Positions 6,267 to 26,818 of a stretch of DNA of 64,000 nucleotides are shown in pieces. This DNA comes from Eubacteriales bacterium (GTDB lineage: Bacteria > Bacillota > Clostridia > Oscillospirales > CAG-272): positions 1,202 through 65,201 of the forward strand of contig JAZRQR010000130.1 of assembly GCA_045650025.1 (NCBI GenBank). Direction: 5' to 3'. The notes under the pieces are model-generated. The model was given only the letters and a program-made list of their open reading frames with translations. It was not told where the DNA came from and ran no database searches. Made by a program: the position numbers and the translations under genes. Position 1 is the stretch's first letter. The number at the start of each line of letters is the position of its first letter.

Positions 6267-6270
6267 TGCC

Positions 6271-8443: not shown

Positions 8444-8456
8444 GGAGGGCAAAGGA

Positions 8457-8795: not shown

Positions 8796-8803
8796 CACGC
8801 AAC

Positions 8804-8836
8804 AAAAAAGAGCCGACGCACGCGTCGGCTCTTTTA
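8804..8836. terminator. Bidirectional intrinsic terminator
   Basis: AAAAAG-AGCCGACGC / GCGTCGGCT-CTTTTATT between convergent genes. Confidence 0.75.
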
Positions 8837-9808: not shown

Positions 9809-9833
9809 ACTCTCCCTCTTTTCCGCTTCTAAA

Positions 9834-10907
9834 TCAATCCAGATTTAACAGGTCAAGGCTCTTACCGTACTCGTTGAGCTCAACCGTCATGTTCTTCTTA
9901 ATACCGTCCTCGTATTCGCCCATCTTGGCGGACTGGTAATATTGCAGCAGGCGCTCGCCGTACATCAGCACGTAAAGCTCCTCGATCGGCATACGCATGA
10001 TCACGCAATAGCCGCTGCCGTATTCCACCACACCGCTGGTCTCGTATTCGCCAAGCGCAAAGGTTGCCGCCTCGTATTCCTCTCCCATTTCACCGTAGGT
10101 GAAGTAGAAGCCGGACTCGGTCACGGTGTTGTCCTTGTTGATCTTGGAGCCAATGTACTGGCACATCAGGGAGTATCTCTCCTGATCGTCGGTGCATGCC
10201 GCCAGATCGTCCGCAACTGCCTTGGCAGTCTCGTAATATTCGTCCTTCTTGCTCTGATCCTCCACGGGCACGTACACGTGAATGGTTCTGGCGTAGTCTT
10301 CGCCCGCAAGCACGTAATCCAAGTATTCCGAGAAATTACGCTCGCCGTACTCGAAAATGCCGCCGTCCACCAGCGCGTAGTACATAGCAGACTCCAGGTA
10401 GCTGACGCGGTAGATAAAGCGCAGATAGTGGTCGGTCAGGTCGTTTTCCGCAAGCCACTCCAGGTATGCATCAAAGTCGCCGCCAAAGCCGCCCTCTGCC
10501 TCGCTCTGGTTGACCAGTGCCTCGATCTGCTCCTGCACGTAAGAGTCAATGTCCTTATCCTGGGTATTGACCATCAGATTCTTGCAGCCGGTAATGATGG
10601 CGTAATTTGCCTTGAGGTTTTCCAAGACAAGCTGCTCCAGCTCAGGATAATGCTCTTGCGCGGTGCGCTCGTTTTCCCAAATGCCCTTGCCGTATTTTTG
10701 CTCCAGCGTTGCCTTGTAGGTGTTGGCTACAAAGCGCAGCTCCTCGTAATAGATCTCGTATTCGTCGCACTTACCAACCACGCGCATTTCCTGCTCGGTG
10801 CTCTCCACGGGCTCGATCTTGTCGCCGCAGCCAACCAGCGTCAGCATCAGCAGCAGGAGTGCCATGGTGCACGCCAGCATACGCAAGAGTTTGTTTTTTT
10901 GCATCAT
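9834..10907 (-). CDS. PrsA/SurA-like lipoprotein (parvulin-type foldase-like)
   Basis: Lipobox LTLVGC. C-terminal parvulin-like stretch (GFYFTYGEMGEEYEAATFALGEYETSGVVEYGSGYCVIMRM). GGAGGAA RBS before a tandem ATG ATG (10907/10904). Confidence 0.65.
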   Translation of the reverse strand: MMQKNKLLRMLACTMALLLLMLTLVGCGDKIEPVESTEQEMRVVGKCDEYEIYYEELRFVANTYKATLEQKYGKGIWENERTAQEHYPELEQLVLENLKANYAIITGCKNLMVNTQDKDIDSYVQEQIEALVNQSEAEGGFGGDFDAYLEWLAENDLTDHYLRFIYRVSYLESAMYYALVDGGIFEYGERNFSEYLDYVLAGEDYARTIHVYVPVEDQSKKDEYYETAKAVADDLAACTDDQERYSLMCQYIGSKINKDNTVTESGFYFTYGEMGEEYEAATFALGEYETSGVVEYGSGYCVIMRMPIEELYVLMYGERLLQYYQSAKMGEYEDGIKKNMTVELNEYGKSLDLLNLD

Positions 10908-12034: not shown

Positions 12035-12177
12035 CCCATTGTAGGGGTCGACGTCCTCGGCGACCTGCATCCCCATTGTAGGGGTCGACGTCCTCGGAGA
12101 CTCGCATCCCCATTGTAGGGGTCGACGTCCTCGGCGACCCGCATCCCCATTGTAGGGGTCGACGTCCTCGGCGACCC
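12035..12177 (+). repeat. Tandem array of four REP-like units (37-bp period)
   Basis: GTAG at 12041, 12078, 12115 and 12152. Each is followed by GGGTCG-ACGTCCTCGG-CGACCC (6-bp stem, 10-nt loop). The second copy has a degenerate 3' arm (AGACTC). Confidence 0.85.
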
Positions 12178-12212
12178 GTTAAGGCAAAAATTGATCCGCA
12201 GAAAACAAAAAT

Positions 12213-12376: not shown

Positions 12377-12405
12377 TTGACAAGCGAAATCGAGAGTGCT
12401 ATAAT
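12377..12405 (+). promoter_or_regulatory. Consensus sigmaA promoter of T-box leader 1
   Basis: TTGACA (12377-12382), 17 nt, TATAAT (12400-12405). Confidence 0.75.
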
Positions 12406-12411
12406 GTTTTC

Positions 12412-12705
12412 AAATTTGAATATCACAAACAACGACTGTGATGAAGAAGGTCGGAGCAAGATGCTTCCAGAGAGTTGTCGGGCGGTGCGAGACAATGGCA
12501 GATGCTTCCGTATGACCTATCACTTCTGAGTCGGAGGACCGAACGGCACGCATGCGCCCAGTAGACTCCTTCCGTATTGCTGCGTAAAGGCAAAGGACTT
12601 GACAGAGTCCGGAAAGTGACGGAGCTTGTTTCCGTAATTTGAGTGGTACCGCGGGTAATTTTGCTCGTCTCAAAGGGTTTCTTTTGAGGCGGGTGTTTTT
12701 GTTTT
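12412..12705 (+). promoter_or_regulatory. T-box riboswitch leader 1 (candidate specifier AUC, Ile)
   Basis: Stem I has a UGAUGA K-turn, an AGAGAG bulge (12469-12474) and a GGUGCGA distal loop (12484-12490). Specifier-loop candidate is AUC-A (12519-12522). T-box consensus AAUUUGAGUGGUACCGCGG lies at 12637-12655. Terminator hairpin CGTCTCAAAG/CTTTTGAGGCG plus U-run lies at 12664-12705. Confidence 0.85.
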
Positions 12706-12758
12706 ATTCAGATTTGTAATCATCCACGAGAATTTCAGAAATGAAAGGAGACAACAAA

Positions 12759-15032
12759 ATGGATTACAGTTTGAAAGAGGTTGCAGGCAGAATCAAGGAC
12801 CTGCGAGAGGCAAAGGGATATACCCCTGCTGAGCTGGCTAAGCTGACCGGCGTTACGGTGGAGGACTACCTGTTGCTGGAGCAGGGCGAGACCGATTTCA
12901 GCTTCACCTTTATTTACAAGTGCGCCAAGGCGTGCGACGTAGAAGTAGTCGACCTTCTGGAAGGCCGAAGCACTACGCTGACCTCCTTTGCGATTACCAG
13001 ACGCGGCGAGGGCTTGAAGATTCTCAAGCAGCACGGCGTGGAATACAATAACTTAGCGCCCAAGTTCAAGGACAAGCTCGCAGAGCCCTTCCTTGTGAAG
13101 TTCCCCTATATTCCCGAGGAGCAGAATGCACCCATGAAGCTCAACTCGCACAACGGTCAGGAATTCGACGTTATCGTGCGCGGCTCTCTCAAGGTGCAGG
13201 TCGGCAACCACGTGGACATTCTGCACGAGGGTGACTCGATCTTCTACAACAGCTTGATCCCCCACGGCATGATCGCGGTCAGCGAGGGCGGCTGTGACTT
13301 CCATGCAGTCGTGCTCAATCCCCAGGACGGTCTGGTCAGCGAGGAGTACCCCGAAGCGCCCGTTGCCACCGCGCCCAAGGCAACCGCGCAGACCGTTGGC
13401 ACCGAGACCGTGGCAGACAACTTTGTAGAGTCCTACTACGATGAAAACGGCGTTTTCAACGGCATCAAGTTCAAGAACGCCGATAAGTTCAACTTTGCAT
13501 TTGACTGCGTAGACGCCATTGCACAAAAGACGCCCGATAAGCTGGCGATGATGTGGGTGGCAAACGATAAGACCGACCGCCGCTTTACCTTCAGCGATAT
13601 GAAGAAGTACTCGGCAAAAACCGCCAACTACTTTGAATCCCTTGGCATCAAGCGCGGCGACAAGGTCATGCTGGTGCTCAAGCGTCATTACCAGTTCTGG
13701 TTCTGCATGCTGGCGCTGCACAAGATCGGTGCTGTCGCCATCCCCGCAACCAACCAGTTAGTTGCGCACGACTTTGAATACCGCTACCAGGCGGCAAACG
13801 TCAAGGCAATCGTTTGCACCGCGGATGGAGAGGTTTCCACCGAGGCAGACAAGGCTGCTGCAGAGTATCCGGGCCTGCTTAAGATCATGGTAGGCGGTCA
13901 GAAACCCGGCTGGCATGACTTCAACGTGGAAATGGAGCGCTTCAGCACTCACTACTTCCGCACCGAGAACAGCCCCTGCGGCGATGATCCCATGCTCATG
14001 TTCTTCACCTCCGGCACGACCGGCTACCCCAAGATCGCAGCGCACAGCTACAAGTACGCGCTGGGTCACTACCCCACCGCCAAGCATTGGCACAACGTCA
14101 AGCCCGGCGGTCTGCACTTCACCATTTCGGACACCGGCTGGGGTAAGGCACTCTGGGGCAAGCTGTACGGTCAGTGGCTGTGCGAGGCAGCAACCTTTAC
14201 CTATGACTTTGACAGATTCCGCTCCGAGGACATTCTGCCTATGTTTGCCAAGTACGGCATCACCACCTTCTGCGCACCTCCCACCATGTACCGTTTCTTT
14301 ATCAAGGAGGATCTTTCCAAGTACGATCTCTCCTCGATCCAATACGCCACCACGGCAGGCGAAGCACTCAACCCCGAGGTATTCAGCCAGTTCAAGAAGG
14401 CAACCGGCCTGACCATTATGGAAGGCTTTGGTCAGACCGAGACCACGCTCTCGATCGCCAACTTTGTGGGCACTACGCCCAAGATCGGCTCGATGGGTCG
14501 TCCCAGCCCCCTGTACGATATCGTACTGCTGGATCCCGACGGCAATCCCTGTCCTACGGGTGACACGGGCGAGATCTGCATCCGCGTCAAGGACGACGTT
14601 CCCTGCGGCTTGTTCATCGGCTATTATCAGGACGAGGAAAAGACCCGCGACGTATGGCACGACGGCTATTACCACACAGGCGACCAGGCAACCATGGACG
14701 AGGACGGCTACCTCTGGTTTGTCGGACGTATTGACGACGTTATCAAGTCGTCCGGTTACCGCATCGGCCCGTTCGAGATCGAAAGCGTGATCATGGAGCT
14801 GCCCTACGTGCTGGAATGCGGCGTTAACGCGGCTCCCGATGAGATCCGCGGTCAGGTGGTCAAGGCAAGCATTGTGCTGACCAAGGGCACCGAGCCCACG
14901 GAGGCGCTTAAGAAGGAGATCCAGGAATACGTCAAGTCGCGTACGGCTCCCTATAAGTACCCGCGTATCGTGGTCTTCCGCGATGAGCTGCCCAAAACCA
15001 TCAGCGGTAAAATTATACGAAACAAGCTTTGA
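12759..15032 (+). CDS. XRE-HTH + cupin + AMP-forming (medium-chain type) acyl-CoA ligase fusion, paralogue 1
   Basis: N-terminal HTH (TPAELAKLTGVTVEDYLLLEQG), cupin (GDSIFYNSLIPHGM), then a ligase core (FTSGTTGYPK, SSGYRIGPFEIES, PKTISGKI). Start set at ATG 12759 behind AAAGGAG; the track start is 12741. Confidence 0.9.
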   Translation: MDYSLKEVAGRIKDLREAKGYTPAELAKLTGVTVEDYLLLEQGETDFSFTFIYKCAKACDVEVVDLLEGRSTTLTSFAITRRGEGLKILKQHGVEYNNLAPKFKDKLAEPFLVKFPYIPEEQNAPMKLNSHNGQEFDVIVRGSLKVQVGNHVDILHEGDSIFYNSLIPHGMIAVSEGGCDFHAVVLNPQDGLVSEEYPEAPVATAPKATAQTVGTETVADNFVESYYDENGVFNGIKFKNADKFNFAFDCVDAIAQKTPDKLAMMWVANDKTDRRFTFSDMKKYSAKTANYFESLGIKRGDKVMLVLKRHYQFWFCMLALHKIGAVAIPATNQLVAHDFEYRYQAANVKAIVCTADGEVSTEADKAAAEYPGLLKIMVGGQKPGWHDFNVEMERFSTHYFRTENSPCGDDPMLMFFTSGTTGYPKIAAHSYKYALGHYPTAKHWHNVKPGGLHFTISDTGWGKALWGKLYGQWLCEAATFTYDFDRFRSEDILPMFAKYGITTFCAPPTMYRFFIKEDLSKYDLSSIQYATTAGEALNPEVFSQFKKATGLTIMEGFGQTETTLSIANFVGTTPKIGSMGRPSPLYDIVLLDPDGNPCPTGDTGEICIRVKDDVPCGLFIGYYQDEEKTRDVWHDGYYHTGDQATMDEDGYLWFVGRIDDVIKSSGYRIGPFEIESVIMELPYVLECGVNAAPDEIRGQVVKASIVLTKGTEPTEALKKEIQEYVKSRTAPYKYPRIVVFRDELPKTISGKIIRNKL

Positions 15033-15049
15033 TTTTTCGTGTGATTTTT

Positions 15050-15075
15050 TGCAGGTTTCACAAACAAAACTTGCA
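15050..15075 (+). terminator. Weak hairpin between the two ligase transcription units
   Basis: TGCAGGTTT / AAAACTTGCA stem (one G-U) with a poor U-tract. Confidence 0.3.
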
Positions 15076-15083
15076 GAAATTTC

Positions 15084-15112
15084 TTGACACGAAAAGCACA
15101 TTATGATATAAT
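15084..15112 (+). promoter_or_regulatory. Consensus sigmaA promoter of T-box leader 2
   Basis: TTGACA (15084-15089), 17 nt, TATAAT (15107-15112). Confidence 0.75.
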
Positions 15113-15118
15113 AATAAG

Positions 15119-15426
15119 TAATTTCTTGAAAAAGGCAATGACGAAAAATTCACGGGATTTGCGCATTTTACAGAGAGTCGGCGGCAGGTGTGTGCCGTCA
15201 GTACGCGCCCTTGATCTGATTTCCGAGCCGAGGGAAGAACGCATATGTCCGCCGACAAACGACATGGTTATTAGACCCCTCCGTACCCGCCGCGTTAAGG
15301 CATGGATGTTCCCCGCTTTCGTGGGATAACGCATCCGCAAAGTGGCGCTCTGCGCAATTTGAGTGGTACCGCGGACATGATATTCTTGCCCGTCTCAAGT
15401 CAGCTTGAGACGGGCATGCTTTTTTT
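15119..15426 (+). promoter_or_regulatory. T-box riboswitch leader 2 (candidate specifier CUG, Leu)
   Basis: AAUGA K-turn, AGAGAG (15172-15177), GGUGUG distal loop (15187-15192). Specifier candidate is CUG-A (15216-15219). T-box consensus AAUUUGAGUGGUACCGCGG lies at 15356-15374. Terminator GCCCGTCTCAAG/CTTGAGACGGGC plus U-run lies at 15388-15426. Confidence 0.85.
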
Positions 15427-15463
15427 CGCCGTACCCAACCAAACATAAGGAGATTTCAATCAA

Positions 15464-17746
15464 ATGAGTAATCTGACAGGACTTGAACAGAAAATAGTCG
15501 AAATGGCGGCGCGTATCCGCGAGCTGCGTGAGATCGAGGGTCTGAGCGTTGCCTATATGGCAAACGCCGCAGGCGTCAGCCAGGAGGAATACTTGGATTG
15601 CGAGGCGGGTAAGCACGACCTCAACTTCGCATTTATTTACCGCTGCGCACAGGCGTTGCGCGTGGACGTGACCGAGATTATCGAAGGCTCTGCGCCCAAG
15701 CTGCAGACCTATACCCTGACCCGCCGCGGTGCAGGTCAGAAGATCGAGCAGGCGCACGGCATGAACTATTACAACATGGCGTACACCTTCAAGAGCCGTA
15801 TAGCAGAGCCCCTGTTCGTGCGCGCGACCTACAGCGCCGAAGCTGAGAACGCGCCCATTGCCGTGACCAGCCACCAGGGCCAGGAATGCGATATCGTCAT
15901 TGATGGTCGCCTGAAGGTCCAGATCGGCGATCACGTGGAGATCCTGAGCGCGGGCGATACCATTTACTACGACTCGTCCATCCCCCACGGTATGGTTGCC
16001 GTTGGCGGTAAGGACTGTACCTTCTACGCCATCGTGCTTGACCCCGATGCAGCCGAGCAGATCAAGGCGGTTGAGGTCGGTGCGGCGCCCAAGCTGACCG
16101 TGCGCGACGATCAGAAGCGCGTATGGCAGAATTTCGTGGACGTGACCGAAAACGAGCAAGGCATTCTGCAATCCCTCTCCTTCAAGAATACCGAGCACTT
16201 TAACTTTGCATACGATATCATCGACACGCTGGGCCGCGAGAAGCCCGATAAGCTGGCGATGCTGCACATTGCACAGGACATGACCGAGAGACGCTTCTCG
16301 TTCGGCGACATCAAGCGCGCCTCCTCCCAGTGTGCCAACTACTTCAAGTCGCTGGGCATCAAGAGAGGCGACCGCGTCATGCTGATCTGTAAGCGTCACT
16401 ACCAGTTCTGGTTCTCCATGCTGGCGCTGCACAAGATTGGTGCTGTGGCAATCCCCGCCTCCAACCAGCTGCAGGAGCACGACCTTTCCTACCGCTTTGG
16501 TGCGGCAGGCATCAGCGCCATCATCTGCACCGCAGACGGTGACGTGGCTCGTCAGGTAGAGCTTGCCGAGCAGGGCTGCCCCACGCTAACTGCCAAGATC
16601 CTGATCGGCGGCGAACGCGAGGGCTGGCGCAACTTTGACGCCGAATATTCCCTGTTCAGCGGCAAGTGGGAGCGCGACGAAAACTCCCCCGGCGGCGACG
16701 ACCTGATGCTCATGTTCTTTACCTCGGGCACGACGGGGTATCCCAAGATCGCAGCGCACAGCTACAAGTACGCGCTGGGTCACTTCCATACCGCAAAATA
16801 CTGGCATTGCGTAGACCCCGAGGGTCTGCACCTGACCATTTCCGACACCGGCTGGGCAAAGGCAATGTGGGGTAAGATGTACGGTCAGTGGCTGTGCGAG
16901 GCGGCAACCTTTGTATACGACTTTGACCCCTTTGACGCATCCGTCATTCTTCCCATGTTTGCAAAGCACCACATCACCACCTTCTGTGCTCCCCCCACCA
17001 TGTACCGCATGATGATCAAGCAGGATCTGACCAAGTACGATCTTTCCTCGGTCAAGCATGCAGCCATTGCGGGCGAGGCACTCAACCCCGAGGTCTACCA
17101 CCGCTTCAAGCAGCTTACGGGTCTGGAGCTCATGGAAGGCTTTGGTCAGTCCGAGACCACGCTGGTGATCGGTAACCTGGTCGGCATGACGCCCAAGATC
17201 GGCTCTATGGGCAAGCCCGTTCCCTTGTATGACGTCAGCATCGTGGATCCCGACGGCAATCCCGTTGGAGTGGGCGAGAGCGGCGAGATCGTCATTCGCA
17301 CCGATATTGAGCATCCCAACGGTCTGTTCCAGGGCTACTACAACGCTCCCGAGAAGACCGCAGAGGTATGGCACGACGGCTACTACCACACCGGTGACGT
17401 GGCATGGCGCGACGAGGACGGCTACTACTGGTACGTCGGCCGCGTGGATGACGTTATCAAGTCCTCCGGTTACCGTATTGGCCCGTTTGAGATCGAGAGC
17501 GTCATCATGGAGCTGCCTTACGTACTGGAATGCGGCGTCAGCGCAGCACCCGATGAAATTCGCGGCCAGGTCGTTAAGGCAAGCATCGTGCTCACGGGCG
17601 GCAAGCAGCCCTGTGAGGAGCTTAAGAAAGAAATTCAGGCGTACGTCAAGTCGCGTACCGCCCCCTATAAATACCCCAGAATCGTGGTCTTCTGCGAAAG
17701 CCTGCCCAAAACTACCAGCGGCAAGATCATTCGTAACAAGCTGTAA
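15464..17746 (+). CDS. XRE-HTH + cupin + AMP-forming acyl-CoA ligase fusion, paralogue 2
   Basis: 760 aa, colinear with 12759-15032 over its full length with the same motifs. AAGGAG RBS upstream of ATG 15464. Confidence 0.9.
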   Translation: MSNLTGLEQKIVEMAARIRELREIEGLSVAYMANAAGVSQEEYLDCEAGKHDLNFAFIYRCAQALRVDVTEIIEGSAPKLQTYTLTRRGAGQKIEQAHGMNYYNMAYTFKSRIAEPLFVRATYSAEAENAPIAVTSHQGQECDIVIDGRLKVQIGDHVEILSAGDTIYYDSSIPHGMVAVGGKDCTFYAIVLDPDAAEQIKAVEVGAAPKLTVRDDQKRVWQNFVDVTENEQGILQSLSFKNTEHFNFAYDIIDTLGREKPDKLAMLHIAQDMTERRFSFGDIKRASSQCANYFKSLGIKRGDRVMLICKRHYQFWFSMLALHKIGAVAIPASNQLQEHDLSYRFGAAGISAIICTADGDVARQVELAEQGCPTLTAKILIGGEREGWRNFDAEYSLFSGKWERDENSPGGDDLMLMFFTSGTTGYPKIAAHSYKYALGHFHTAKYWHCVDPEGLHLTISDTGWAKAMWGKMYGQWLCEAATFVYDFDPFDASVILPMFAKHHITTFCAPPTMYRMMIKQDLTKYDLSSVKHAAIAGEALNPEVYHRFKQLTGLELMEGFGQSETTLVIGNLVGMTPKIGSMGKPVPLYDVSIVDPDGNPVGVGESGEIVIRTDIEHPNGLFQGYYNAPEKTAEVWHDGYYHTGDVAWRDEDGYYWYVGRVDDVIKSSGYRIGPFEIESVIMELPYVLECGVSAAPDEIRGQVVKASIVLTGGKQPCEELKKEIQAYVKSRTAPYKYPRIVVFCESLPKTTSGKIIRNKL

Positions 17747-18408
17747 TGAAGCAAAAACGCATTACCTTGTTCGTGGGACATTACGGCAGCGGAAAAACCA
17801 ATCTGGCAGTCAATTACGCCATGCACTTGCACAGGCAGGGTGAGCGCGTGGTGCTGGCAGATATGGACATCGTTAACCCCTACTTCCGCTCCAAGGACAG
17901 CGAAGACGAGCTGCAAGCGCTCGGCATTCAAACGCTCTCCTCCCCTTACGCCAACACCAATCTGGACGCACCCGCCATGCCCGCTTCGTTTTACGGCATC
18001 TTTGAGCACAAGGATCGCCTGGCGGTGCTTGACGTGGGCGGCGATGACCGCGGCGCGGTGGCGCTGGGCAGATACGTGCCCATGATACGCGAGGAGAACG
18101 ACTTTGAAATGATCTTTGTTGCCAACGCCTATCGCGCGCTGACCCCCGACCCCGAGGACGCCCTTGAGGTGCTGCGCGAGATCGAGCATGCCTGCAAGCT
18201 GCCCGTGACCGCCATTGCCAACAACTCCCACTTGGGCGAATTTACCGATGCGGACACCGTGCTCTCCTCCCAAGGCTACGTGCAAAAGCTTTGCGAGCTG
18301 ACCGGGCTGCCGCTGGTGATGACCGCCTTTGAAGAGCGTCTGGCGTCCGAGCTGGCGCATCGCGTGCAAAACCCCTTCCCCATTACCCTACAGAAGAAAT
18401 ATTATTGA
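17746..18408 (+). CDS. MinD/ParA/CooC-class (SIMIBI) P-loop NTPase
   Basis: Deviant Walker A GHYGSGKT close to the N-terminus; DMDIVNP and VGGD motifs. Its start overlaps the ligase stop (TAATG). Confidence 0.7.
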   Translation: MKQKRITLFVGHYGSGKTNLAVNYAMHLHRQGERVVLADMDIVNPYFRSKDSEDELQALGIQTLSSPYANTNLDAPAMPASFYGIFEHKDRLAVLDVGGDDRGAVALGRYVPMIREENDFEMIFVANAYRALTPDPEDALEVLREIEHACKLPVTAIANNSHLGEFTDADTVLSSQGYVQKLCELTGLPLVMTAFEERLASELAHRVQNPFPITLQKKYY

Positions 18409-18432
18409 TTTTACATACGGAGGACCCCTACT

Positions 18433-18639
18433 ATGGCAAAACTCACTATTGACGTCGAGAGATGCAAGGGCTGCGGACTTTGCGTGGCAAACTGTCCCAA
18501 AAAGCTTTTGCACATCGCCAAAGACAAAATCAACTCCAAGGGCCATTGCCCTGCCCAAATCACCGATGAATCCGCCTGCGTGGGCTGCGCAAGCTGCGCT
18601 CTGATCTGCCCGGACTGCGTGATCACGGTAGAAAGATAA
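18433..18639 (+). CDS. 2-oxoacid:ferredoxin oxidoreductase delta subunit (2x[4Fe-4S] ferredoxin)
   Basis: 68 aa with CKGCGLCVANCP and CVGCASCALICP cluster motifs. Confidence 0.85.
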   Translation: MAKLTIDVERCKGCGLCVANCPKKLLHIAKDKINSKGHCPAQITDESACVGCASCALICPDCVITVER

Positions 18640-18652
18640 GGAGGAGCGAAAC

Positions 18653-19711
18653 ATGTCTGATAAGGTACTTATGAAAGGCAATGAAGCCATTGCCGAGGCT
18701 GCTATTATGGCAGGCTGCCGTCACTATTTCGGCTACCCCATCACCCCCCAGACCGAAATTGCGGCATACATGGCAAAAAAGATGCCCAAGATCCGCGGCT
18801 GCTTCCTGCAGGCTGAAAGCGAGATCGCTGCTATCAACATGGTCTACGGCGTTGCCGCTACGGGCAAGAGAGTTATGACCTCTTCGTCCTCCCCCGGAAT
18901 CTCGCTGAAAAGCGAGGGCATTTCCTACTTGGCAGGCGCTGACCTGCCTGCGCTGATCGTCAACGTCCAGCGCGGCGGCCCCGGCCTTGGCGGTATCCAG
19001 CCCTCTCAGTCCGATTATTTCCAGGCAACCCGCTCCTGCGGTCACGGCGACTTCCACCTGATCGTGCTGGCTCCCAGCTCGGTACAGGAAATGGCAGAGC
19101 TGACCGTTAAGGGCTTTGACCTTGCCGACAAATACCGCATGACCTCCATGATCCTTGCCGACGGTACTATGGGTCAGATGATGGAGCCCGTCTCGCTTGC
19201 CGACATCAAGCCCACCACGGTGGAAAAGCCCTGGGCGGTCACCGGTACCAAGCTGGAGAGAAAGCACAATATCGTCAACTCGCTCTCCTTGATTCCCGAG
19301 GAGCTCGAGCAGCAGAACTTTGACCGCTTCGACCGCTACCGCCTGGTAGAAGAGAACGAGGTCATGTACGAGGAATTTATGATGGAGGATGCAGAGATCT
19401 GCATCGCGGCATTCGGTATTGCCGCTCGCGTTTCCAAGAACGCAGTCATCGCTGCCCGCGAGATGGGCATCAAGGTGGGTATGATCCGTCCCATCACGCT
19501 CTGGCCCTTCCCCAAGCAGGCGTTCCGTAAGGCCGCCGATCAGGTTAAGGCATTTATTTCGGTCGAGCTGTCCATGGGACAGATGATCGACGACATTCGT
19601 CTTGCCGAGGAATGCATTCGTCCCGTATATCTGTGCAACAGAGCGGGCGGTATGATCCCCTCTCCCGAACAGGTACTGGCAAGCATTCAAAGCATTGCAG
19701 GAGGTAACTGA
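18653..19711 (+). CDS. 2-oxoacid:ferredoxin oxidoreductase alpha subunit
   Basis: MKGNEAIAEAAIMAGCRHYFGYPITPQTEI is the typical POR/VOR/KOR alpha N-terminus. 352 aa. Confidence 0.9.
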   Translation: MSDKVLMKGNEAIAEAAIMAGCRHYFGYPITPQTEIAAYMAKKMPKIRGCFLQAESEIAAINMVYGVAATGKRVMTSSSSPGISLKSEGISYLAGADLPALIVNVQRGGPGLGGIQPSQSDYFQATRSCGHGDFHLIVLAPSSVQEMAELTVKGFDLADKYRMTSMILADGTMGQMMEPVSLADIKPTTVEKPWAVTGTKLERKHNIVNSLSLIPEELEQQNFDRFDRYRLVEENEVMYEEFMMEDAEICIAAFGIAARVSKNAVIAAREMGIKVGMIRPITLWPFPKQAFRKAADQVKAFISVELSMGQMIDDIRLAEECIRPVYLCNRAGGMIPSPEQVLASIQSIAGGN

Positions 19712-19713
19712 TC

Positions 19714-20475
19714 ATGGTAGTTTTCAAAAGACCGCACGCACTTGCGGATATGACCATGCATTACTGCCCCGGCTGCACGCACGGTATTGTGCACAGACTG
19801 GTGGCTGAGGTCATGGACGAGCTTGGCATTGAGGGTAAAACGGTAGGCGTTGCGCCCGTCGGCTGCTCGGTTATGGCATATAACTATTTCAATTGCGATA
19901 TGGTGGAGGCTGCACACGGACGCGCTCCCGCCGTTGCAACCGGACTTAAGAGAGCCAACCCCGAAAACGTGGTATTCACCTATCAGGGTGACGGCGACCT
20001 TGCTTCCATCGGTATGGCAGAGACGGTACACGCCGCTGCACGTAACGAGAATATTACCGTTATTTTCATCAACAACGCCATCTACGGCATGACCGGCGGT
20101 CAGATGGCTCCCACCTCGCTGCCCGGTCAGGTCACCCAGACCTCTCCCTACGGCAGAGATACCGATCATTGCGGCTTCCCCGTTAAGGTTTCCGAGATGC
20201 TCTCGCAGCTGGAAGGCCCGCAGTACATCGAGCGCGTTGCCGTCACCAGCGTTGCAGGCATCCGCAAGGCGAAGAAGGCGATCCTCAAGGCGTTCCAGAA
20301 TCAGGTGGATGGCAAGGGCTTTTCGCTGGTTGAGGTCATCTCCACCTGCCCGACCAACTGGGGCATGACGCCCGAAAAGGCAATGCAGTGGGCTAACGAG
20401 AACATGCTGCCCTACTATCCTCTGGGCGTATACCGTGACCGCGATGCACAGAAGAAGGAGGACGCACAGGCATGA
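19714..20475 (+). CDS. 2-oxoacid:ferredoxin oxidoreductase beta subunit (TPP-binding)
   Basis: YCPGCTHG plus GDGD...NN..YGMTGGQ TPP motif. 253 aa. Confidence 0.9.
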   Translation: MVVFKRPHALADMTMHYCPGCTHGIVHRLVAEVMDELGIEGKTVGVAPVGCSVMAYNYFNCDMVEAAHGRAPAVATGLKRANPENVVFTYQGDGDLASIGMAETVHAAARNENITVIFINNAIYGMTGGQMAPTSLPGQVTQTSPYGRDTDHCGFPVKVSEMLSQLEGPQYIERVAVTSVAGIRKAKKAILKAFQNQVDGKGFSLVEVISTCPTNWGMTPEKAMQWANENMLPYYPLGVYRDRDAQKKEDAQA

Positions 20476-21011
20476 AAACCTTACAGATGTTGATTGCAGG
20501 CTTTGGTGGCCAGGGCGTTCTGTTCCTTGGCAAGATCGTGGCGTATCAGGGTCTGATTGCCGATAAACAGGTCAGCTGGCTGCCCTCCTACGGCCCCGAA
20601 ATGCGCGGCGGTACGGCAAACTGCTCCATTATCGTAAGCGACACCCCCGTCGGCTCGCCCATCGTGGCTACCCCCGACTGTCTGGTTGCCATGAACCTGC
20701 CCTCGCTTGACAAGTACGAGGCAGCCGTCGTGCCCGGCGGTAAGATCTTTGTGGACAGCACGCTGATCACCCGTAAGATCGAGCGCGAGGACGTAGACGC
20801 ATACTACATTCCCGCAACCCAGATTGCCAACGAGATGGGCATTCCCACGCTGGCAAACATGATCATTCTCGGCAAGGTGCTTGCCGAATACCCCGAGCTT
20901 GGCATGGAGTACCTGGAAGCCGCTATGGGCAAGGTCGTCAGCGCCAAGAGAGCCAACCTGATCGAGCAGAATCTGAACGCCATCAAGCTGGGCTACGAAT
21001 ACAAGGCTTAA
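20472..21011 (+). CDS. 2-oxoacid:ferredoxin oxidoreductase gamma subunit
   Basis: [12 protein letters not shown]...[12 protein letters not shown] motif. ATGA overlap with the beta subunit gene. Confidence 0.9.
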
Positions 21012-21023
21012 GGAGATATTGCC

Positions 21024-22091
21024 ATGTTGGATATCAAAATCATTGAAAACGAGCAGACCTGGGAGCTTCCCGAGGACAGCAAGCTCGGCTTTGGCAGATA
21101 CTTTACCAACCACATGTTCATGATGGACTATAACAAGCAAGAGGGCTGGCACAATGCGCGCATCGTGCCCTTTGGCACCATTGCGCTGCACCCCGCTGCT
21201 ACCGTGCTGCACTACGGCGCGGAGATCTTTGAGGGGCTTAAGGCTTACCGCCGCCTGTCCGACGGCAAGGTGCAGATGTTCCGTCCCATGGAAAACATTC
21301 GCCGCATGAACGTCAGCGCAGAAAGGCTGTGCCTGCCCACCATTCCCGAAGAGGATGCGCTGCAGTGCTACACCGAATTTGTGCGCCACGAGCAGGCTTG
21401 GGTCCCTCACACCGAGGGCACCTCGCTCTACATCCGCCCCTTTATGTTCGGTAACGACCCCTACCTTGGCGTACACGGCGTAAACGAAGCAGTCTTTATG
21501 ATCATCGCTTCCCCCAGCGGCTCCTATTACAAGGAGGGCATCAACCCCGTTAAGATCATGATCGAGGGTGAGGACGTCCGCGCTGTCAAGGGTGGCACGG
21601 GTCACATCAAGTGCGGCGGCAACTACGCTGCCAGCACCAGAGCCGGCGACAAGGCTGAAAAGCAGGGTTACTCGCAGGTGCTTTGGCTGGACGGCGTGGA
21701 GCGCAAGTACATCGAAGAAGTCGGCGCGATGAACGTTATGTTCAAGATCGACGGCGAAATTGTCACCCCCGCGCTGACCGGCTCGATTTTGCCCGGTATT
21801 ACCAGAAAGTCCTGCCTGGAGGTGCTGCGTGACGCAGGCTATTCTGTCAGCGAGCGCCGTATCAGCGTAGACGAGCTGATCGAGGCTGCACAGACAGGCA
21901 AGCTGGAAGAGGCTTGGGGTACCGGCACGGCAGCAGTTGTTTCCCCCATTGGCGAGCTTTGCTACGGCGGCGTTCGCTACCCCGTCAGCGGCGGCAAGAT
22001 CGGCGCTGTCACCCAGTCCCTGTACGATACCCTGACCGGTATTCAATGGGGCAAGATCCAGGATACCAAGGGATGGATCTTAGAAATCTAA
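21024..22091 (+). CDS. ilvE: Branched-chain amino acid aminotransferase (fold type IV)
   Basis: 355 aa. FGRYFTNHMF, EIFEGLKAY, and GTGHIKCGGNYAAS...GTGTAAVVSP, typical of the long BCAT subclass. Confidence 0.9.
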   Translation: MLDIKIIENEQTWELPEDSKLGFGRYFTNHMFMMDYNKQEGWHNARIVPFGTIALHPAATVLHYGAEIFEGLKAYRRLSDGKVQMFRPMENIRRMNVSAERLCLPTIPEEDALQCYTEFVRHEQAWVPHTEGTSLYIRPFMFGNDPYLGVHGVNEAVFMIIASPSGSYYKEGINPVKIMIEGEDVRAVKGGTGHIKCGGNYAASTRAGDKAEKQGYSQVLWLDGVERKYIEEVGAMNVMFKIDGEIVTPALTGSILPGITRKSCLEVLRDAGYSVSERRISVDELIEAAQTGKLEEAWGTGTAAVVSPIGELCYGGVRYPVSGGKIGAVTQSLYDTLTGIQWGKIQDTKGWILEI

Positions 22092-22109
22092 CTAACGGAG
22101 TACACTGCC

Positions 22110-23513
22110 ATGCGCAATCTCATTATTAACGATATCACTCTCTGCACAAAGCTTGCCGCAGACCAGCTCTCGTTCCGCGAAAAGGTGCAGGCTGCCAGAT
22201 TGCTGGGCAAGATGCACGTCTCGCAGATCACGCTGCCCCAGATCAAGAGCCACAAGGCAGACGCGCTGCTGGCGCGCACCGTAGCGTCGGTCATTACCGA
22301 CACGGTGCTCTGCGCACGCGTCAAGCACGACGGCTCGGATGCCGAGGAGGTATACGCCTCGATCAGCGCGGCAAAGAACAAAAAGCTCGCGCTGGCGCTA
22401 CCCACCTCGCAGGCACAGCTGGAGTTCTTATATCACATCAAGCCCGCAAACGCAGCGGGGACCGTGCAAAAGGGTATTTCTGCGGCACGCGCGCTGTGCG
22501 AAAACGTGGAATTCGTGGCGGAGGACGCCATTCGCGGCGACTATGCCATTCTGACCGGCTGCATCAAGGCAGCGATCGAGGCAGGTGCAACCACCGTCAC
22601 CATCTGCGATCCCGAGGGCTATGCCCTGCCCGCAGATATGATCGTTTTTGTACAAAAGCTCAAGGCTGACGTACCCGAGCTGGCAAACGTCACGCTGGGT
22701 CTTTCCTGCTCGGACGCTTGCGGTCTGGCGCTTGCCACCGTACTGGAATCTCTCTCTGCAGGCGTTGGACAGATCGATCTGTGCTGCGCAGGCAATCAGG
22801 CACCGAGCACCGCTGCAACGCTTTCCATTCTCGCGCAGAGATCCGAGGCGCTGGGCGTGAGCACCTGCGTACTCTACACCGAGGCAAAGACCTGCGCTGC
22901 CGATACCGCACGCCTGTTTGACAAAAAGGCAAGCGGCAAGCTGGATACCGCGCTTGCTACCGAGGGGGAGGGCCTGGTTCTGGACGCAAACGTAGACAAG
23001 CACACCGTGCTTGCCGAGGTGGCAAAGCTGGGCTACACGCTTTCCGCCGAGGACGCTAACCGCGTATACGAGGAATGCAAGAGCATCGCGCAGAGCAAGA
23101 CCATTGGCTCGCGCGAGCTGGACACCATTGTGGCAGCCGTTGCCATGCAGGTGCCCTCTACCTATAAGCTGGTCACCTACGTGATCAATAGCGGTAACAC
23201 CTTCTCCTCCTCTGCGCACATCACCGTGGCAAAGGGCGAAAAGACGCTGCAGGCGATCTCCCTGGGCGACGGTCCGATCGACGCTGCCTTCAAGGCGCTG
23301 GAGCAGATCGTTGGCCACCACTACGAGCTGGACGATTTCCAGATCCACGCCGTGACCGAGGGTCGCGAGGCAGTTGGCTCTGCGCTGGTCAAGCTGCGCT
23401 CCGAGCGCGGTCTGCAGGCAGGCCAGGGCGTTTCCACCGACATCATCGGTGCGTCCATCCGCGCATATCTGGATGCGCTCAACAAGATCGTATATGAGGA
23501 GGCACTGGCGTGA
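22110..23513 (+). CDS. 2-isopropylmalate/citramalate synthase-like protein with degenerate catalytic motifs
   Basis: Colinear with the HMGL-like TIM barrel plus LeuA-dimer domain. The C-terminal domain is conserved (GDGPIDAAFKALEQIVG, STDIIGASIRAYLDALNKI). The RDGEQ-type and HxH motifs are replaced (ITLCTKLAADQ; LSCSDACG). Confidence 0.75.
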   Translation: MRNLIINDITLCTKLAADQLSFREKVQAARLLGKMHVSQITLPQIKSHKADALLARTVASVITDTVLCARVKHDGSDAEEVYASISAAKNKKLALALPTSQAQLEFLYHIKPANAAGTVQKGISAARALCENVEFVAEDAIRGDYAILTGCIKAAIEAGATTVTICDPEGYALPADMIVFVQKLKADVPELANVTLGLSCSDACGLALATVLESLSAGVGQIDLCCAGNQAPSTAATLSILAQRSEALGVSTCVLYTEAKTCAADTARLFDKKASGKLDTALATEGEGLVLDANVDKHTVLAEVAKLGYTLSAEDANRVYEECKSIAQSKTIGSRELDTIVAAVAMQVPSTYKLVTYVINSGNTFSSSAHITVAKGEKTLQAISLGDGPIDAAFKALEQIVGHHYELDDFQIHAVTEGREAVGSALVKLRSERGLQAGQGVSTDIIGASIRAYLDALNKIVYEEALA

Positions 23514-26011
23514 AGCTCTCGTTTTCCAACAGAAAATGGACGGCATGTTCCTATGCCGACCTGCTTTCCCTGTGCGATGCCACGGGTATGCAGGGTCTGG
23601 AGCTTTATGACGTTGCCGATACCTTAGGTGCGCCCGGTCAGCCCTTTGACGCTTCGTGCGCCAGAAGCACGCTGCACACGCTGATCGACCGCCGCATCAC
23701 CCCCGTTTGTTTTGATACATCTGCCGATATTTCTGCCCCCGATGGAGAGGCTTGCGTGCAAACGCTGCGCTCCTACATCGCACTGGCGGCTGCCTTCCGC
23801 GTTCCTTACGTCCGCGTGCACACGCGCACCGACGGCACGGATTGCTTTGATATCGTTTGCAACAATATCGCGCCTCTCTTGCCCTATGCGCAGGAAATGG
23901 GCGTTACGCTGCTGCTGGAGACGGCAGGATGCTTTGCGCATACCGATTCGCTGCGCGAGATCCTCAACCGCTTTGCAAGTGACAGCCTGGGCGCGCTTTG
24001 GGATATGTACAACACCTGCCTTGTGGCAGGCGAGTCGCCCGAGACCACCATTACCAACCTGGGCGCTTACGTCAAGCACGTCCACGTGCGCGACGCCAAG
24101 AATGGCGAATACTGCTTTATGGGCGAGGGCGACCTGCCCATGACGGACCTGATCCGTGCACTCTCCTCGGTCAACTACGACGGCTTTATCTCGCTGGAGT
24201 GGGATCCCGCCTGGATCGCGGACATTGACGATCCCGAGATCATTCTGACCCAGTTTGCCACCTACATGGAGCGTTTTTTCGACACCTCACGTGCGCAGGA
24301 CCACCTCTATGATAACAACGCGCACACGGGTAAGTACGTGTGGAAAAAGGACACGCTGATCGACATGACCTTCTCGCAGGTACTGGACCGCATGGTCGAG
24401 CTGTTCCCCGACCAGTATGCCTTCAAGTACACCACGCTCAACTACACCAGAACCTACGCACAGTTCCGCCGCGACGTGGACAAGTGCGCACGTGCCCTGC
24501 TCTCGCTGGGCGTTCGTCCGGGCAGCCACGTAGCAGTTTGGGCAACCAACGTGCCCGAGTGGTATATCGCCTTCTGGGCGGTGACCAAGATCGGCGCGGT
24601 GCTGGTTTCCATGAATACCGCTTACAAGATCCACGAAGCAGAATACCTCCTGCGTCAGTCCGATACCCACACGCTGATCATGGTAGACGGCTACCGTGAC
24701 TCCAACTACCGTGCCATCATTCGCGAGCTTTGCCCTGAAATGGAGACCACGCCCGCAGGCGAGGCGCTGCATTGCAAGCGCTTGCCCTTCTTGCGCCGCG
24801 TGATCACCTGCGGCTTTGAGGAAAAGGGCGCTTTGACCTGGGAGCAGGCGATGACCTACTCGAACGGTACCCCCCGCGAGGAGCTTGCCCGCGTGGCAGC
24901 CGGCGTTTCTCCGCACGACGTCTGCAACATGCAGTACACCTCGGGCACGACCGGATTCCCCAAAGGCGTTATGCTGACGCACTACAACATTGTCAACAAC
25001 GGTAAGTGCATCGGCGACCGCATGGATCTTTCCACCGCCGACCGCATGATGATTCAGGTGCCCATGTTCCATTGCTTTGGCATGGTGCTTGCAATGACCG
25101 CATCCATGACGCACGGCGTTTCGATCTACCCGCTGCCCTACTTCTCTCCCCGTCCTGCTCTGGCGTGCATTCACCAGGAGCGCATTACCGCATTCCATGG
25201 CGTACCCACCATGTTCATTGCCCTGCTCGAGCACCCCGATTTTGCCAAGACCGACTTCTCGCACGTACGTACCGGCATTATGGCAGGCAGCCCCTGCCCC
25301 ATTTCGGTCATGCGCGACGTGGTAGACAAGATGCACATGAGCGAGATCACCATCGTGTACGGTCAGACCGAGGCGTCTCCCGGCTGCACCATGTCCTCGA
25401 CCAACGACCCGCTTGAGGTGCGCGTTGGTACGGTTGGACGCGCCCTGCCCGAGATCGAGTGCAAGGTAGTCGACCCCGAAACCGGTGAGGAGATGCCCGT
25501 TGGTCAGAACGGCGAGTTCGTAGCCCGCGGCTATAACATTATGAAAGGATATTACAAGATGCCCCGCGCAACCGCTGCCGCCATTGACAAGGACGGCTGG
25601 CTGCACACGGGTGACCTTGCTGCCATGACCGAGGACGGAAACTTCCGTATCACCGGTCGACTCAAGGATATGATCATCCGCGGCGGCGAGAACATCTATC
25701 CCAAGGAGATCGAGGAATTCATTTATACCCATCCCAAGGTCAAGGACGTACAGGTCATCGGCGTGCCCGATGAGCAGTATGGCGAGGAAATTATGGCTTG
25801 CATCATCCTCAAGGAGGGTGAGAGTATGACCGAAAAGGAAATGAAGGGCTATATTCTCGATCACATGGCGCGCCACAAGGTGCCCAAGTACATTGATTTT
25901 GTGGATTCCTTCCCCATGAACGTGGCTGGCAAGATCCTCAAATACAAGATGCGCGAGGACGCCGTCAAAAAGCTGGGTCTGCAAAAGGCTGACAGCATTG
26001 TGACCGCGTAA
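23510..26011 (+). CDS. Xylose-isomerase-like TIM-barrel domain fused to an AMP-forming acyl-CoA ligase (FadD-like)
   Basis: 833 aa. The N-terminal ~260 aa is an AP_endonuc_2/sugar-phosphate-isomerase-like barrel (LLLETAG, HVHVRDA, ISLEWD). The C-terminus has YTSGTTGFPKGV, GEFVARGYNIMKGYY and GRLKDMIIRGGENIYP. GTG start overlaps the upstream stop (GTGA). Confidence 0.85.
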   Translation: MKLSFSNRKWTACSYADLLSLCDATGMQGLELYDVADTLGAPGQPFDASCARSTLHTLIDRRITPVCFDTSADISAPDGEACVQTLRSYIALAAAFRVPYVRVHTRTDGTDCFDIVCNNIAPLLPYAQEMGVTLLLETAGCFAHTDSLREILNRFASDSLGALWDMYNTCLVAGESPETTITNLGAYVKHVHVRDAKNGEYCFMGEGDLPMTDLIRALSSVNYDGFISLEWDPAWIADIDDPEIILTQFATYMERFFDTSRAQDHLYDNNAHTGKYVWKKDTLIDMTFSQVLDRMVELFPDQYAFKYTTLNYTRTYAQFRRDVDKCARALLSLGVRPGSHVAVWATNVPEWYIAFWAVTKIGAVLVSMNTAYKIHEAEYLLRQSDTHTLIMVDGYRDSNYRAIIRELCPEMETTPAGEALHCKRLPFLRRVITCGFEEKGALTWEQAMTYSNGTPREELARVAAGVSPHDVCNMQYTSGTTGFPKGVMLTHYNIVNNGKCIGDRMDLSTADRMMIQVPMFHCFGMVLAMTASMTHGVSIYPLPYFSPRPALACIHQERITAFHGVPTMFIALLEHPDFAKTDFSHVRTGIMAGSPCPISVMRDVVDKMHMSEITIVYGQTEASPGCTMSSTNDPLEVRVGTVGRALPEIECKVVDPETGEEMPVGQNGEFVARGYNIMKGYYKMPRATAAAIDKDGWLHTGDLAAMTEDGNFRITGRLKDMIIRGGENIYPKEIEEFIYTHPKVKDVQVIGVPDEQYGEEIMACIILKEGESMTEKEMKGYILDHMARHKVPKYIDFVDSFPMNVAGKILKYKMREDAVKKLGLQKADSIVTA

Positions 26012-26088
26012 GCCGCATAGAAAAAGCAACGGAATCCGGGGGATTTCGGGGCGTTTTCTTTGCCAAATACATAAGCCAAAGAAAAATC

Positions 26089-26117
26089 TTGACGCAACAA
26101 GAAGAATATGCTATAAT
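26089..26117 (+). promoter_or_regulatory. SigmaA-type promoter
   Basis: TTGACG (26089-26094), 17 nt, TATAAT (26112-26117), upstream of the CPBP protease gene. Confidence 0.65.
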
Positions 26118-26143: not shown

Positions 26144-26818
26144 ATGGAAAAATCCAAGAAAAACGCAATAGCCGTACTGGTGCTCTCGCTCTCGCTCTGC
26201 GTCTGCATGGGCTTGGTTGACGCGATCCTCTCGCCGCCGTATGCCGTCAAAAGTGCCATCAAATTGGTACTGTTCGGTGCGATCCCCATCATTTGCCTGA
26301 TCTCGACAAAATCCTTTGCGCCCAAAAAGCTGTTCTCGCTCAAGGGACAGCACGCAAAGCTGATCGCGCCCCTTGCCGTGGGCATTTTTTCCGTGATCAT
26401 GATCGCATTTTTTGCGCTGCGCAATTTCATTGATTTTTCATCCGTAACCGATTCGGTGACAGCAGACGCGGGCGTGACGCGCGAGAATTTTATCTTCGTC
26501 GCGCTGTATATTGCGCTGATCAACTCCTTTTTGGAGGAATTTTTCTTCCGCGGCTTTTGCTTTTTCTCTCTGCGTCCGCTCGGGCTCCCCTTTGCCTACG
26601 TGGCAAGTGCCCTGCTCTTTTCCGCCTATCACGTTGCGTTTATGGACGGTTGGCTCTCGCCCGTCATTTTTGCGCTGTCCCTTTTGGGCATGGCGATCGG
26701 CGGTGCGATCTTCGCCTTTCTCAACCATAAGACCGAAAGTCTGCTGCCCTCGTATTTCGTGCATATGGCGTCCAATCTTGCCACCAATCTGATCGGTATT
26801 ATCATGTTTTACTCATAA
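26144..26818 (+). CDS. CPBP-family intramembrane glutamic endopeptidase (CAAX protease/Abi)
   Basis: Polytopic membrane protein with EEFFFRG, FSAYH and HMASN motifs. Confidence 0.85.
   Translation: MEKSKKNAIAVLVLSLSLCVCMGLVDAILSPPYAVKSAIKLVLFGAIPIICLISTKSFAPKKLFSLKGQHAKLIAPLAVGIFSVIMIAFFALRNFIDFSSVTDSVTADAGVTRENFIFVALYIALINSFLEEFFFRGFCFFSLRPLGLPFAYVASALLFSAYHVAFMDGWLSPVIFALSLLGMAIGGAIFAFLNHKTESLLPSYFVHMASNLATNLIGIIMFYS

Follow-up and report, generated by a model that had tools for sequence, protein, structure and literature searches.

A T-box-controlled gene cluster in the Oscillospirales that probably converts branched short-chain acids to branched-chain amino acids

The 64,000-nucleotide stretch of DNA that we analyzed (hereafter, the window) comes from a member of the Oscillospirales (contig JAZRQR010000130.1 of assembly GCA_045650025.1), and our interest is in the locus at positions 12377-26011. 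This locus encodes three acyl-CoA ligases, a four-subunit 2-oxoacid:ferredoxin oxidoreductase (OFOR) that is probably of the VOR type, and a branched-chain aminotransferase (IlvE), and two of the ligase genes lie behind T-box leaders. We think it likely that the locus is a salvage system, induced by starvation, that would convert exogenous branched short-chain acids to branched-chain amino acids (BCAAs). An earlier interpretation made from the letters alone (the sequence-only reading) had proposed this biosynthetic direction, and it appears to be right: all of the sequence-level checks were favorable, and none of the computable findings that would contradict it turned up.

The list of open reading frames (ORFs) contains ten co-directional genes within the locus. 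As the sequence-only reading had claimed, they are tightly packed, with stop and start codons overlapping at three places (TAATG at 17746, ATGA at 20472, and GTGA at 23510), which suggests co-translation. The features of the locus are as follows.

12377-12405, forward: promoter P1, TTGACA and TATAAT with a 17-nt spacer and an extended TG (12 of 12 consensus matches)
12429-12675, forward: T-box leader 1, specifier AUC (Ile); RF00230, 78.4 bits, E = 3.6e-17, model positions 1-219
12662-12705, forward: intrinsic terminator of leader 1, a 15-pair stem and U-run (-21.5 kcal/mol, z = -3.7)
12741-15032, forward: ligase 1, Ile class, with an XRE-type helix-turn-helix (XRE-HTH), a cupin, and an AMP-forming ligase (Pfam, NCBIfam)
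15084-15112, forward: promoter P2, 12 of 12 consensus matches with TG and a 17-nt spacer
15129-15400, forward: T-box leader 2, specifier CUG (Leu); RF00230, 61.2 bits, E = 5.8e-13, model positions 1-219
15387-15426, forward: intrinsic terminator of leader 2, 13 pairs (8 of them GC) and U-run (-26.3 kcal/mol, z = -3.6)
15464-17746, forward: ligase 2, Val class by sequence, with XRE-HTH, cupin, and AMP-forming ligase
17746-18408, forward: P-loop NTPase of the SIMIBI class, Walker A motif GHYGSGKT
18433-18639, forward: OFOR delta, a ferredoxin with two [4Fe-4S] clusters, 68 amino acids; two CxxCxxCxxxCP motifs and matches to Fer4 families
18653-19711, forward: OFOR alpha, VorB subfamily of NCBIfam; POR_N and PFOR_II
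19714-20475, forward: OFOR beta, which binds thiamine pyrophosphate (TPP); TPP_enzyme_C
20472-21011, forward: OFOR gamma; POR, E = 1.4e-35
21024-22091, forward: IlvE, class IV branched-chain aminotransferase; Aminotran_4
22110-23513, forward: pseudo-isopropylmalate synthase (pseudo-IPMS); HMGL-like and LeuA_dimer
23510-26011, forward: ligase 3, a TIM barrel and a FadD-like AMP-forming ligase
26035-26050, forward: weak terminator-like hairpin at the end of the operon

The sequence-only reading had described two paralogous ligases, each behind a consensus promoter and a T-box leader, followed by a P-loop NTPase, a four-subunit OFOR, a fold-type-IV branched-chain aminotransferase, a degenerate IPMS-like protein, and a third ligase. 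This is the order that we find: both promoters match the consensus at 12 of 12 positions, both leaders match RF00230 at full length, and the predicted domains (AMP-binding, POR_N/PFOR_II, TPP_enzyme_C, the POR domain of the gamma subunit, Aminotran_4, and HMGL-like with LeuA_dimer) were all found with Pfam and NCBIfam. Although that list of elements was right, it missed the HTH_3 and Cupin_2 domains of ligases 1 and 2, the AP_endonuc_2 barrel of ligase 3, which codons serve as specifiers, and the fact that the leaders score below the Rfam threshold.

T-boxes switch on the genes behind them if the cognate tRNA is uncharged; typically, these genes encode tRNA synthetases, biosynthetic enzymes, or transporters (PMC3766115). 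Judging from the sequence matches, the membership of both leaders in this family is secure: each aligns to RF00230 along the full length of the model (positions 1-219), and if we consider the whole window, both strands, and 4227 families, then the E-values are 2.8e-15 for leader 1 and 7.4e-11 for leader 2. So the T-boxes of the sequence-only reading gave highly significant matches, but they did not reach the curated gathering score. Because this is 93 bits, scanning the window with the Rfam defaults reports only a tRNA and misses both leaders; we found the leaders by using E-value thresholds instead. Among orthologous leaders from seven loci, 8 of 18 score above the gathering score (95-123 bits). 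Curated Rfam thresholds miss some leaders of this kind, including both in the window, which may partly explain why this class of regulon has gone unnoticed.

The specifier is found in the Rfam alignment as the three bases before the last purine of the loop, abutting the lower helix of Stem I and the K-turn. (A variant of our parser that took the most 3' K-turn landed on Stem II and was rejected.) Leader 1 has AUC at 12519-12521, with A as the following purine (AUC-A, 12519-12522), and then the helix CUUC and the K-turn UGAG. Leader 2 has CUG at 15216-15218 (CUG-A, 15216-15219) and then the helix UUUC and the K-turn CGAG. It also contains GAUCUGA, with an off-register AUC 3 nt upstream of the CUG that is a possible alternative specifier. 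The T-box core GAGUGGUACCGCG is present in both leaders (12641-12653 and 15361-15373). The bulge of the antiterminator is UGGU in both, which fits the discriminator base A73, and A73 is the discriminator base of tRNA-Ile, tRNA-Val, and tRNA-Leu. In each leader, one segment serves both as the 3' arm of the antiterminator and as the 5' arm of the terminator, and the two helices are mutually exclusive. As predicted from these elements, P1 and P2 are strong constitutive promoters, and the leaders behind them would stop transcription unless an uncharged tRNA binds, namely tRNA-Ile for leader 1 and tRNA-Leu for leader 2. The sole tRNA gene in the window is tRNA-Ser(UGA), at 1891-1978, and it is unrelated to the specifiers.

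The ligase 1/2 family has at least 8000 protein matches and at least 600 species-level loci, nearly all from uncultured Clostridia of the gut or rumen (with labels such as Acutalibacteraceae, Oscillospiraceae, Ruminococcaceae, and Christensenellaceae). From the loci that carry homologues of these fusion ligases, we fetched 80 with 10-kb flanks; labels such as L001 refer to them. The sequence-only reading had pointed to other Clostridia as a place to look for the same arrangement behind T-boxes, and it is kept in dozens of species. The conserved order in the 80 loci is ligase, ligase, P-loop, vorD-A-B-C, and aminotransferase. More than 55 loci have a Val-class ligase immediately before VOR and IlvE, in the same orientation and mostly separated from them by short gaps. 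The IPMS-like gene and ligase 3 form a constant pair, which may be placed after the aminotransferase, divergently upstream, or elsewhere. A T-box core is found about 100 nt upstream of nearly all of the fusion-ligase genes and also of most of the separate pairs of IPMS-like gene and ligase 3. (On the minus strand of L017, the regular expression for the core also matches CAGTGGTACCGCG, at 11770 and 9122; these matches are inside two ligase genes and are false positives.) The specifiers, from an automatic parse with a few misparses settled by eye, fall into classes by the gene that follows.

Upstream ligase: AUC (Ile) in 52 of 52 interpretable leaders
VOR-adjacent or stand-alone ligase: GUA or GUC (Val) in 75 leaders
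VOR-adjacent ligase: CUG (Leu) in 2 leaders, those of the window and L001
Pseudo-IPMS and ligase-3 pair as a separate unit: CUC or CUG (Leu) in 20 of 20 leaders

In other words, codons for Ile, Val, or Leu occur in the same register across about 150 orthologous leaders. Promoters in every class come close to the consensus, with a mean of about 11 of 12 matches. It appears that in most relatives, three channels are gated separately: Ile would control ligase 1; Val would control ligase 2, the P-loop protein, VOR, and IlvE; and Leu would control pseudo-IPMS and ligase 3.

We propose that uncharged tRNA-Ile or tRNA-Leu (or tRNA-Val in most relatives) would lead to read-through past the terminator. 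Leader 1 would gate ligase 1 alone, while leader 2 would gate ligase 2, the P-loop NTPase, VOR, IlvE, pseudo-IPMS, and ligase 3. Ligase 1 would then activate 2-methylbutyrate, ligase 2 isobutyrate, and ligase 3 isovalerate, each to its acyl-CoA, with ATP converted to AMP. The OFOR would form the 2-oxo acids by reductive carboxylation (acyl-CoA, reduced ferredoxin, and CO2), and IlvE would convert these to Ile, Val, and Leu. More speculatively, pseudo-IPMS (via its LeuA domain) and the class-specific HTH-cupin modules could be sensors, at the protein level, that act on their own ligases.

We favor the anabolic direction for several reasons. T-box logic turns genes on when amino acids are short. 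The AMP-forming ligases consume ATP and are effectively irreversible; such enzymes run towards acyl-CoA and are not employed to conserve ATP. Catabolic routes use a phosphotransacylase and a kinase, or an ADP-forming synthetase, and neither of these ATP-conserving exits is found among the proteins of the locus with Pfam or NCBIfam.

Ligases 1 and 2 (763 and 760 amino acids) have the domains HTH_3, Cupin_2, AMP-binding, and AMP-binding_C, all above the Pfam cut-offs; across the three ligases, the AMP-binding scores are 202-313 bits and the AMP-binding_C scores are 63-75 bits. The probable start of ligase 1 is the ATG at 12759, which has a Shine-Dalgarno sequence, AAAGGAGA, at 12744-12751, rather than the first ATG at 12741. 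Among solved structures, MacsMa is nearest to the ligase domain (3ETC; E = 9.7e-184 for the domain of ligase 2), and the top NCBIfam model for both proteins is MbcS (438 and 433 bits). MacsMa prefers 2-methylbutyrate and adenylates C3-C8 acids (PMC10455477). MbcS acts selectively on 2-methylbutyrate and isobutyrate and does very poorly with isovalerate and poorly with smaller acids; in Staphylococcus aureus, it feeds FabH with 2-methylbutyryl-CoA and isobutyryl-CoA (PMC10026030). Given this homology, ligase 1, with its Ile T-box, is a candidate 2-methylbutyrate-CoA ligase, and ligase 2 is a candidate isobutyrate-CoA ligase because of the Val T-box context of its relatives. Ligases for acetate or aromatic acids would speak against salvage, but the nearest characterized relatives prefer 2-methylbutyrate or isobutyrate, which suggests otherwise.

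The ligases of the Ile and Val classes form separate groups: those of one class are 71-75% identical to each other, compared with 64% across the two classes. Ligase 1 of the window groups with the Ile-T-box class. Ligase 2 is 69% identical to the Val class versus 62% to the Ile class, and it is of the Val type at 11 of 11 class-specific positions. Ten of these 11 positions fall within the HTH-cupin module, and the remaining one, which is the only one in the ligase domain, adjoins the tryptophan of the DTGW motif; Ile-class ligases have Gly there, and Val-class ligases have Ala. Identity between the classes is 48% for the HTH-cupin module versus 73% for the ligase domain.

This N-terminal XRE-HTH and cupin module is about 230 amino acids. 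It has stand-alone relatives of about 185 amino acids that are 31-45% identical over their full length, and we liken these to small regulators such as PuuR. The order of the domains is the same as in the small HTH-cupin regulators, but here they are fused to a ligase. In L081 (366-1127) and L082 (1905-4163), a gene for a stand-alone HTH-cupin protein of 186-195 amino acids is followed, 4-13 nt downstream, by the gene for an unfused ligase, which shares 50-53% identity with the ligase domains of the window. So the partnership between HTH-cupin and ligase is real, and there it exists without a T-box, as none was found at either L081 or L082. A search of sequences in the PDB with the HTH-cupin module gave zero matches. 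We considered whether the fusion could be an autorepressor like BirA, but this is unsupported: an alignment of promoters and 5' leaders from about 135 orthologs shows near-consensus -35 and -10 boxes and A-rich upstream tracts, with no conserved operator or palindrome. Taking the acidity of the HTH as evidence that the fusion lost DNA binding also fails, as the mean net charge is -6 in the fused modules and about -5 in the stand-alone relatives.

All four subunits of the OFOR (delta, alpha, beta, and gamma) are encoded together. If the enzyme were strict for pyruvate or 2-oxoglutarate, this would argue against salvage; the alpha subunit passes the cut-off of the subfamily that NCBIfam names VorB (NF005507, 530.6 versus 399 bits), which would fit with branched substrates. 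The closest solved structure to alpha is 1yd7, the alpha subunit of 2-keto acid:ferredoxin oxidoreductase from Pyrococcus furiosus. The aminotransferase passes both of the IlvE equivalog cut-offs (465.7 versus 307 bits for NF009897 and 393.2 versus 250 bits for TIGR01123), so its identification in the sequence-only reading as a branched-chain aminotransferase holds.

The P-loop protein (220 amino acids) is annotated as hypothetical wherever it is named, and in Pfam it has only weak matches to CbiA and ParA. It is always next to vorD, and it remains beside vorDABC in loci where the aminotransferase gene has relocated. Its AlphaFold2 model has a pLDDT of 86.9, and the best Foldseek matches are SRP54/FtsY and HypB of the ATPase type (probability 1.0, TM score of about 0.6). 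The modeled fold identifies it as a SIMIBI NTPase; searches of the PDB by sequence and by fold gave generic SIMIBI matches and no specific subfamily. We rejected an alternative role as an electron-activating ATPase similar to NifH because the protein has no cysteines that are conserved.

The degenerate IPMS-like protein of the sequence-only reading has both of the expected domains, an HMGL-like barrel and LeuA_dimer (PF08502, 100 bits versus a cut-off of 24.9), and it has lost its catalytic motifs. Instead of RDGEQ and HxH, the protein from the window reads ITLCTKLA and SCS, and both motifs are lost in 30 of the 30 homologues that we checked. Its score is below all of the LeuA cut-offs (239 versus 532 bits), and the LeuA_dimer domain is the better conserved part (67% mean identity versus 42% for the barrel). 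Many genuine leuA operons sit behind a Leu T-box. LeuA shares the barrel, the allosteric and dimerization domain, and (in relatives of our locus) a preceding Leu T-box with pseudo-IPMS, but it retains RDGEQ and HxH, which pseudo-IPMS has lost, and pseudo-IPMS is coupled to a ligase. Because of the loss of the motifs, the scores below the LeuA cut-offs, and this coupling, pseudo-IPMS looks like a catalytically dead pseudoenzyme or a regulatory subunit rather than a synthase, and it is a candidate sensor of Leu. Ligase 3, whose translation is coupled to that of pseudo-IPMS, combines a TIM barrel similar to xylose isomerase (AP_endonuc_2) with a FadD-like AMP-forming ligase. It is a candidate isovalerate-CoA ligase, and a different, FadD-like ligase in the Leu channel fits with MbcS being poor with isovalerate.

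Several points weigh against salvage as we have described it. We infer the substrates of the ligases and of the OFOR, the direction of flux, and the induction of the genes, all from sequence. Both leaders in the window (78.4 and 61.2 bits) are below the gathering score. The scores of ligases 1 and 2 for MbcS are below the equivalog cut-off (438 and 433 versus 850 bits for NF047394). The beta and gamma subunits of the OFOR are under the cut-offs of their families, and beta is nearest to models of the PorB_KorB type. Also, the Ile T-box gates only a ligase, and starvation for Ile alone would not itself induce VOR and IlvE, so these would have to come from read-through of the other operon or from other copies. 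In about 10 of the 80 loci, the ligase with a Val T-box is alone, and VOR is absent within 10 kb. Finally, ligase 2 of the window belongs to the Val class by sequence and yet is behind a Leu specifier. It looks as if the Leu module was fused into the VOR operon and the specifier was switched to Leu in place: the core of leader 2 is GAGUGG, which is the ligase type, while 16 of 20 leaders of IPMS pairs have GGGUGG. In L020 and L041, however, the Leu module is likewise fused to the operon, and the specifier is still GUC. The closest relative of the window is L001 (93% identical), which shares the Leu specifier. In L001, at 4000-10000, the upstream ligase with its Ile T-box and the gene for HPr kinase are absent, and genes for ABC-F and GH127-like proteins are there instead. 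So the ligase-1 module of the window is a variable addition.

What else might these genes be for? The ligases could mainly supply branched acyl-CoA primers for fatty-acid synthesis when BCAAs are scarce, with VOR and IlvE nearby because they share the same pools of metabolites. MbcS, the top model for ligases 1 and 2, does feed FabH (PMC10026030), ligase 1 is monocistronic behind its own T-box, and the loci with a T-box ligase and no VOR nearby would also fit. Nevertheless, we find this explanation rather unlikely. More than 55 loci link the Val-class ligase directly to VOR and IlvE downstream, and inducing an oxidoreductase and an aminotransferase upon starvation is sensible only if they work towards the amino acid. 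In the Leu channel, there is also the coupling to a regulatory domain from LeuA. We know of no T-box regulon for lipid supply, and the T-box regulons that have been reviewed serve the supply of amino acids (PMC3766115).

A different possibility keeps the logic of salvage and changes the substrates: the Ile-class ligase would act on propionate, the OFOR would form 2-oxobutyrate, and the ilv pathway would convert this to Ile, with the other ligases likewise acting on something besides iso-acids. Synthesis of Ile from propionate via 2-oxobutyrate has been described for some anaerobes. The MbcS equivalog cut-off is missed, which leaves room for other substrates, and MacsMa adenylates acids as small as C3 (its range is C3-C8; PMC10455477). 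But both of the characterized relatives prefer branched C4 or C5 acids, and MbcS is poor with smaller ones. Furthermore, three ligases with three specifiers fit three iso-acids, and with propionate there would be no need for all three channels to share IlvE and VOR. We give this variant only a slim chance. It is harder still to believe that the locus is catabolic, with IlvE and VOR degrading BCAAs to acyl-CoAs to gain energy, and with the T-box-like leaders being relics that no longer function. OFORs and aminotransferases are reversible, and VOR-type enzymes are catabolic in proteolytic Clostridia and in Thermococcales. Yet about 150 leaders in 80 species have kept matching specifiers, terminators, and consensus promoters, and induction by uncharged tRNA is the reverse of what catabolism needs. 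Also, AMP-forming ligases spend ATP, and the locus lacks the phosphotransacylase and kinase or ADP-forming synthetase that would recover it.

Salvage of iso-acids has a long history in physiology. Since the 1960s, it has been known that isobutyrate, 2-methylbutyrate, and isovalerate are required by, or help, rumen and gut anaerobes, which make Val, Ile, and Leu from them by carboxylation, and iso-acids serve as feed additives. The carboxylation of isovalerate to Leu by rumen microbes, for example, is documented (PMC7356843). The chemistry that we propose is identical to the reductive carboxylation of iso-acids in these anaerobes and in methanogens (with VOR working anabolically), but that is known mainly from labeling and enzyme assays, while the locus would be a complete and co-regulated set of genes for it, with dedicated ligases and a regulatory RNA, and is found widely among uncultured Oscillospirales. 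The T-box regulons of Bacillota, such as ilv-leu of Bacillus subtilis or ileS, valS, and leuS, involve the same RNA family and the same logic: Stem I with its K-turn, a specifier codon with a 3' purine, the AG-bulge and distal-loop motifs, a core with UGGN, competing helices, and branched-chain specifiers. However, those regulons gate synthetases, ilv and leu enzymes, and transporters, whereas these gate acyl-CoA ligases, an OFOR, and an aminotransferase, with three parallel leaders and one ligase per amino acid. As for MbcS and MacsMa, they are homologous to the ligase domains of ligases 1 and 2, and both prefer 2-methylbutyrate (MbcS also isobutyrate), but MbcS feeds fatty-acid synthesis and is not linked to VOR or IlvE, and the ligases of the window add the HTH-cupin module and T-box control.

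So the parts and the chemistry are known, and the gene cluster, the class of regulon, and the regulatory layout are new. The sequence-only reading had supposed that this pathway was not previously tied to a T-box-controlled operon of ligase, OFOR, and aminotransferase, and our literature search found no such link. More broadly, we found no literature that links T-boxes to acyl-CoA ligases or to OFORs, but many subscription papers are outside the coverage of our search and an earlier mention is possible. Full-text searches for the gene cluster, for gating of three channels, or for the HTH-cupin-ligase or pseudo-IPMS/TIM-ligase architectures also found none. In the T-box survey of Wels et al. 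(2008), the terms ferredoxin, acyl-CoA, and oxidoreductase do not occur at all.

If our reading is correct, then the locus offers a complete set of candidate genes for iso-acid salvage (three ligases, VOR, IlvE, and accessory proteins), and so far these genes have been poorly defined in the uncultured Oscillospirales that are dominant. The specifiers of the T-boxes would act as built-in labels that assign each ligase to one amino acid, and the T-box regulon would be extended to the activation of acids and to ferredoxin-dependent carboxylation. The HTH-cupin-ligase fusion and the pair of pseudo-IPMS and TIM-ligase are candidate allosteric devices. A bolder and more tentative idea is that, across a large clade of Oscillospirales from the gut and rumen, salvage by three channels is a main source of BCAAs, with both a T-box for the cognate tRNA and a protein sensor controlling each ligase (the HTH-cupin module for the Ile and Val ligases and pseudo-IPMS for the Leu ligase) and with the SIMIBI NTPase supporting VOR. 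We would not bet on all of this, but if it is true, then doubly controlled salvage would explain at the molecular level why fiber-degrading anaerobes have their classical requirement for iso-acids.

Elsewhere in the window, there are three very long ORFs without a match in Pfam: 27605-30307 (900 amino acids), 40147-42774 on the minus strand (875 amino acids), and 52308-55943 (1211 amino acids). The first of these overlaps an antisense ORF of 795 amino acids, so its coding strand is uncertain. Between the gene for HPr kinase and P1, at 12035-12178, there is a 37-nt tandem repeat with 3.9 copies and 95% matches; its 26-nt core has 4 exact copies, which are confined to these positions. We ruled out this repeat as a structured element, as its RNA folding is not in excess (z = 0.48). 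And just past the weak terminator of the operon, at 26089-26117, there is a third near-consensus promoter (11 of 12 matches with TG), which precedes a gene for a CAAX/Rce1-like membrane protease (26144-26818).

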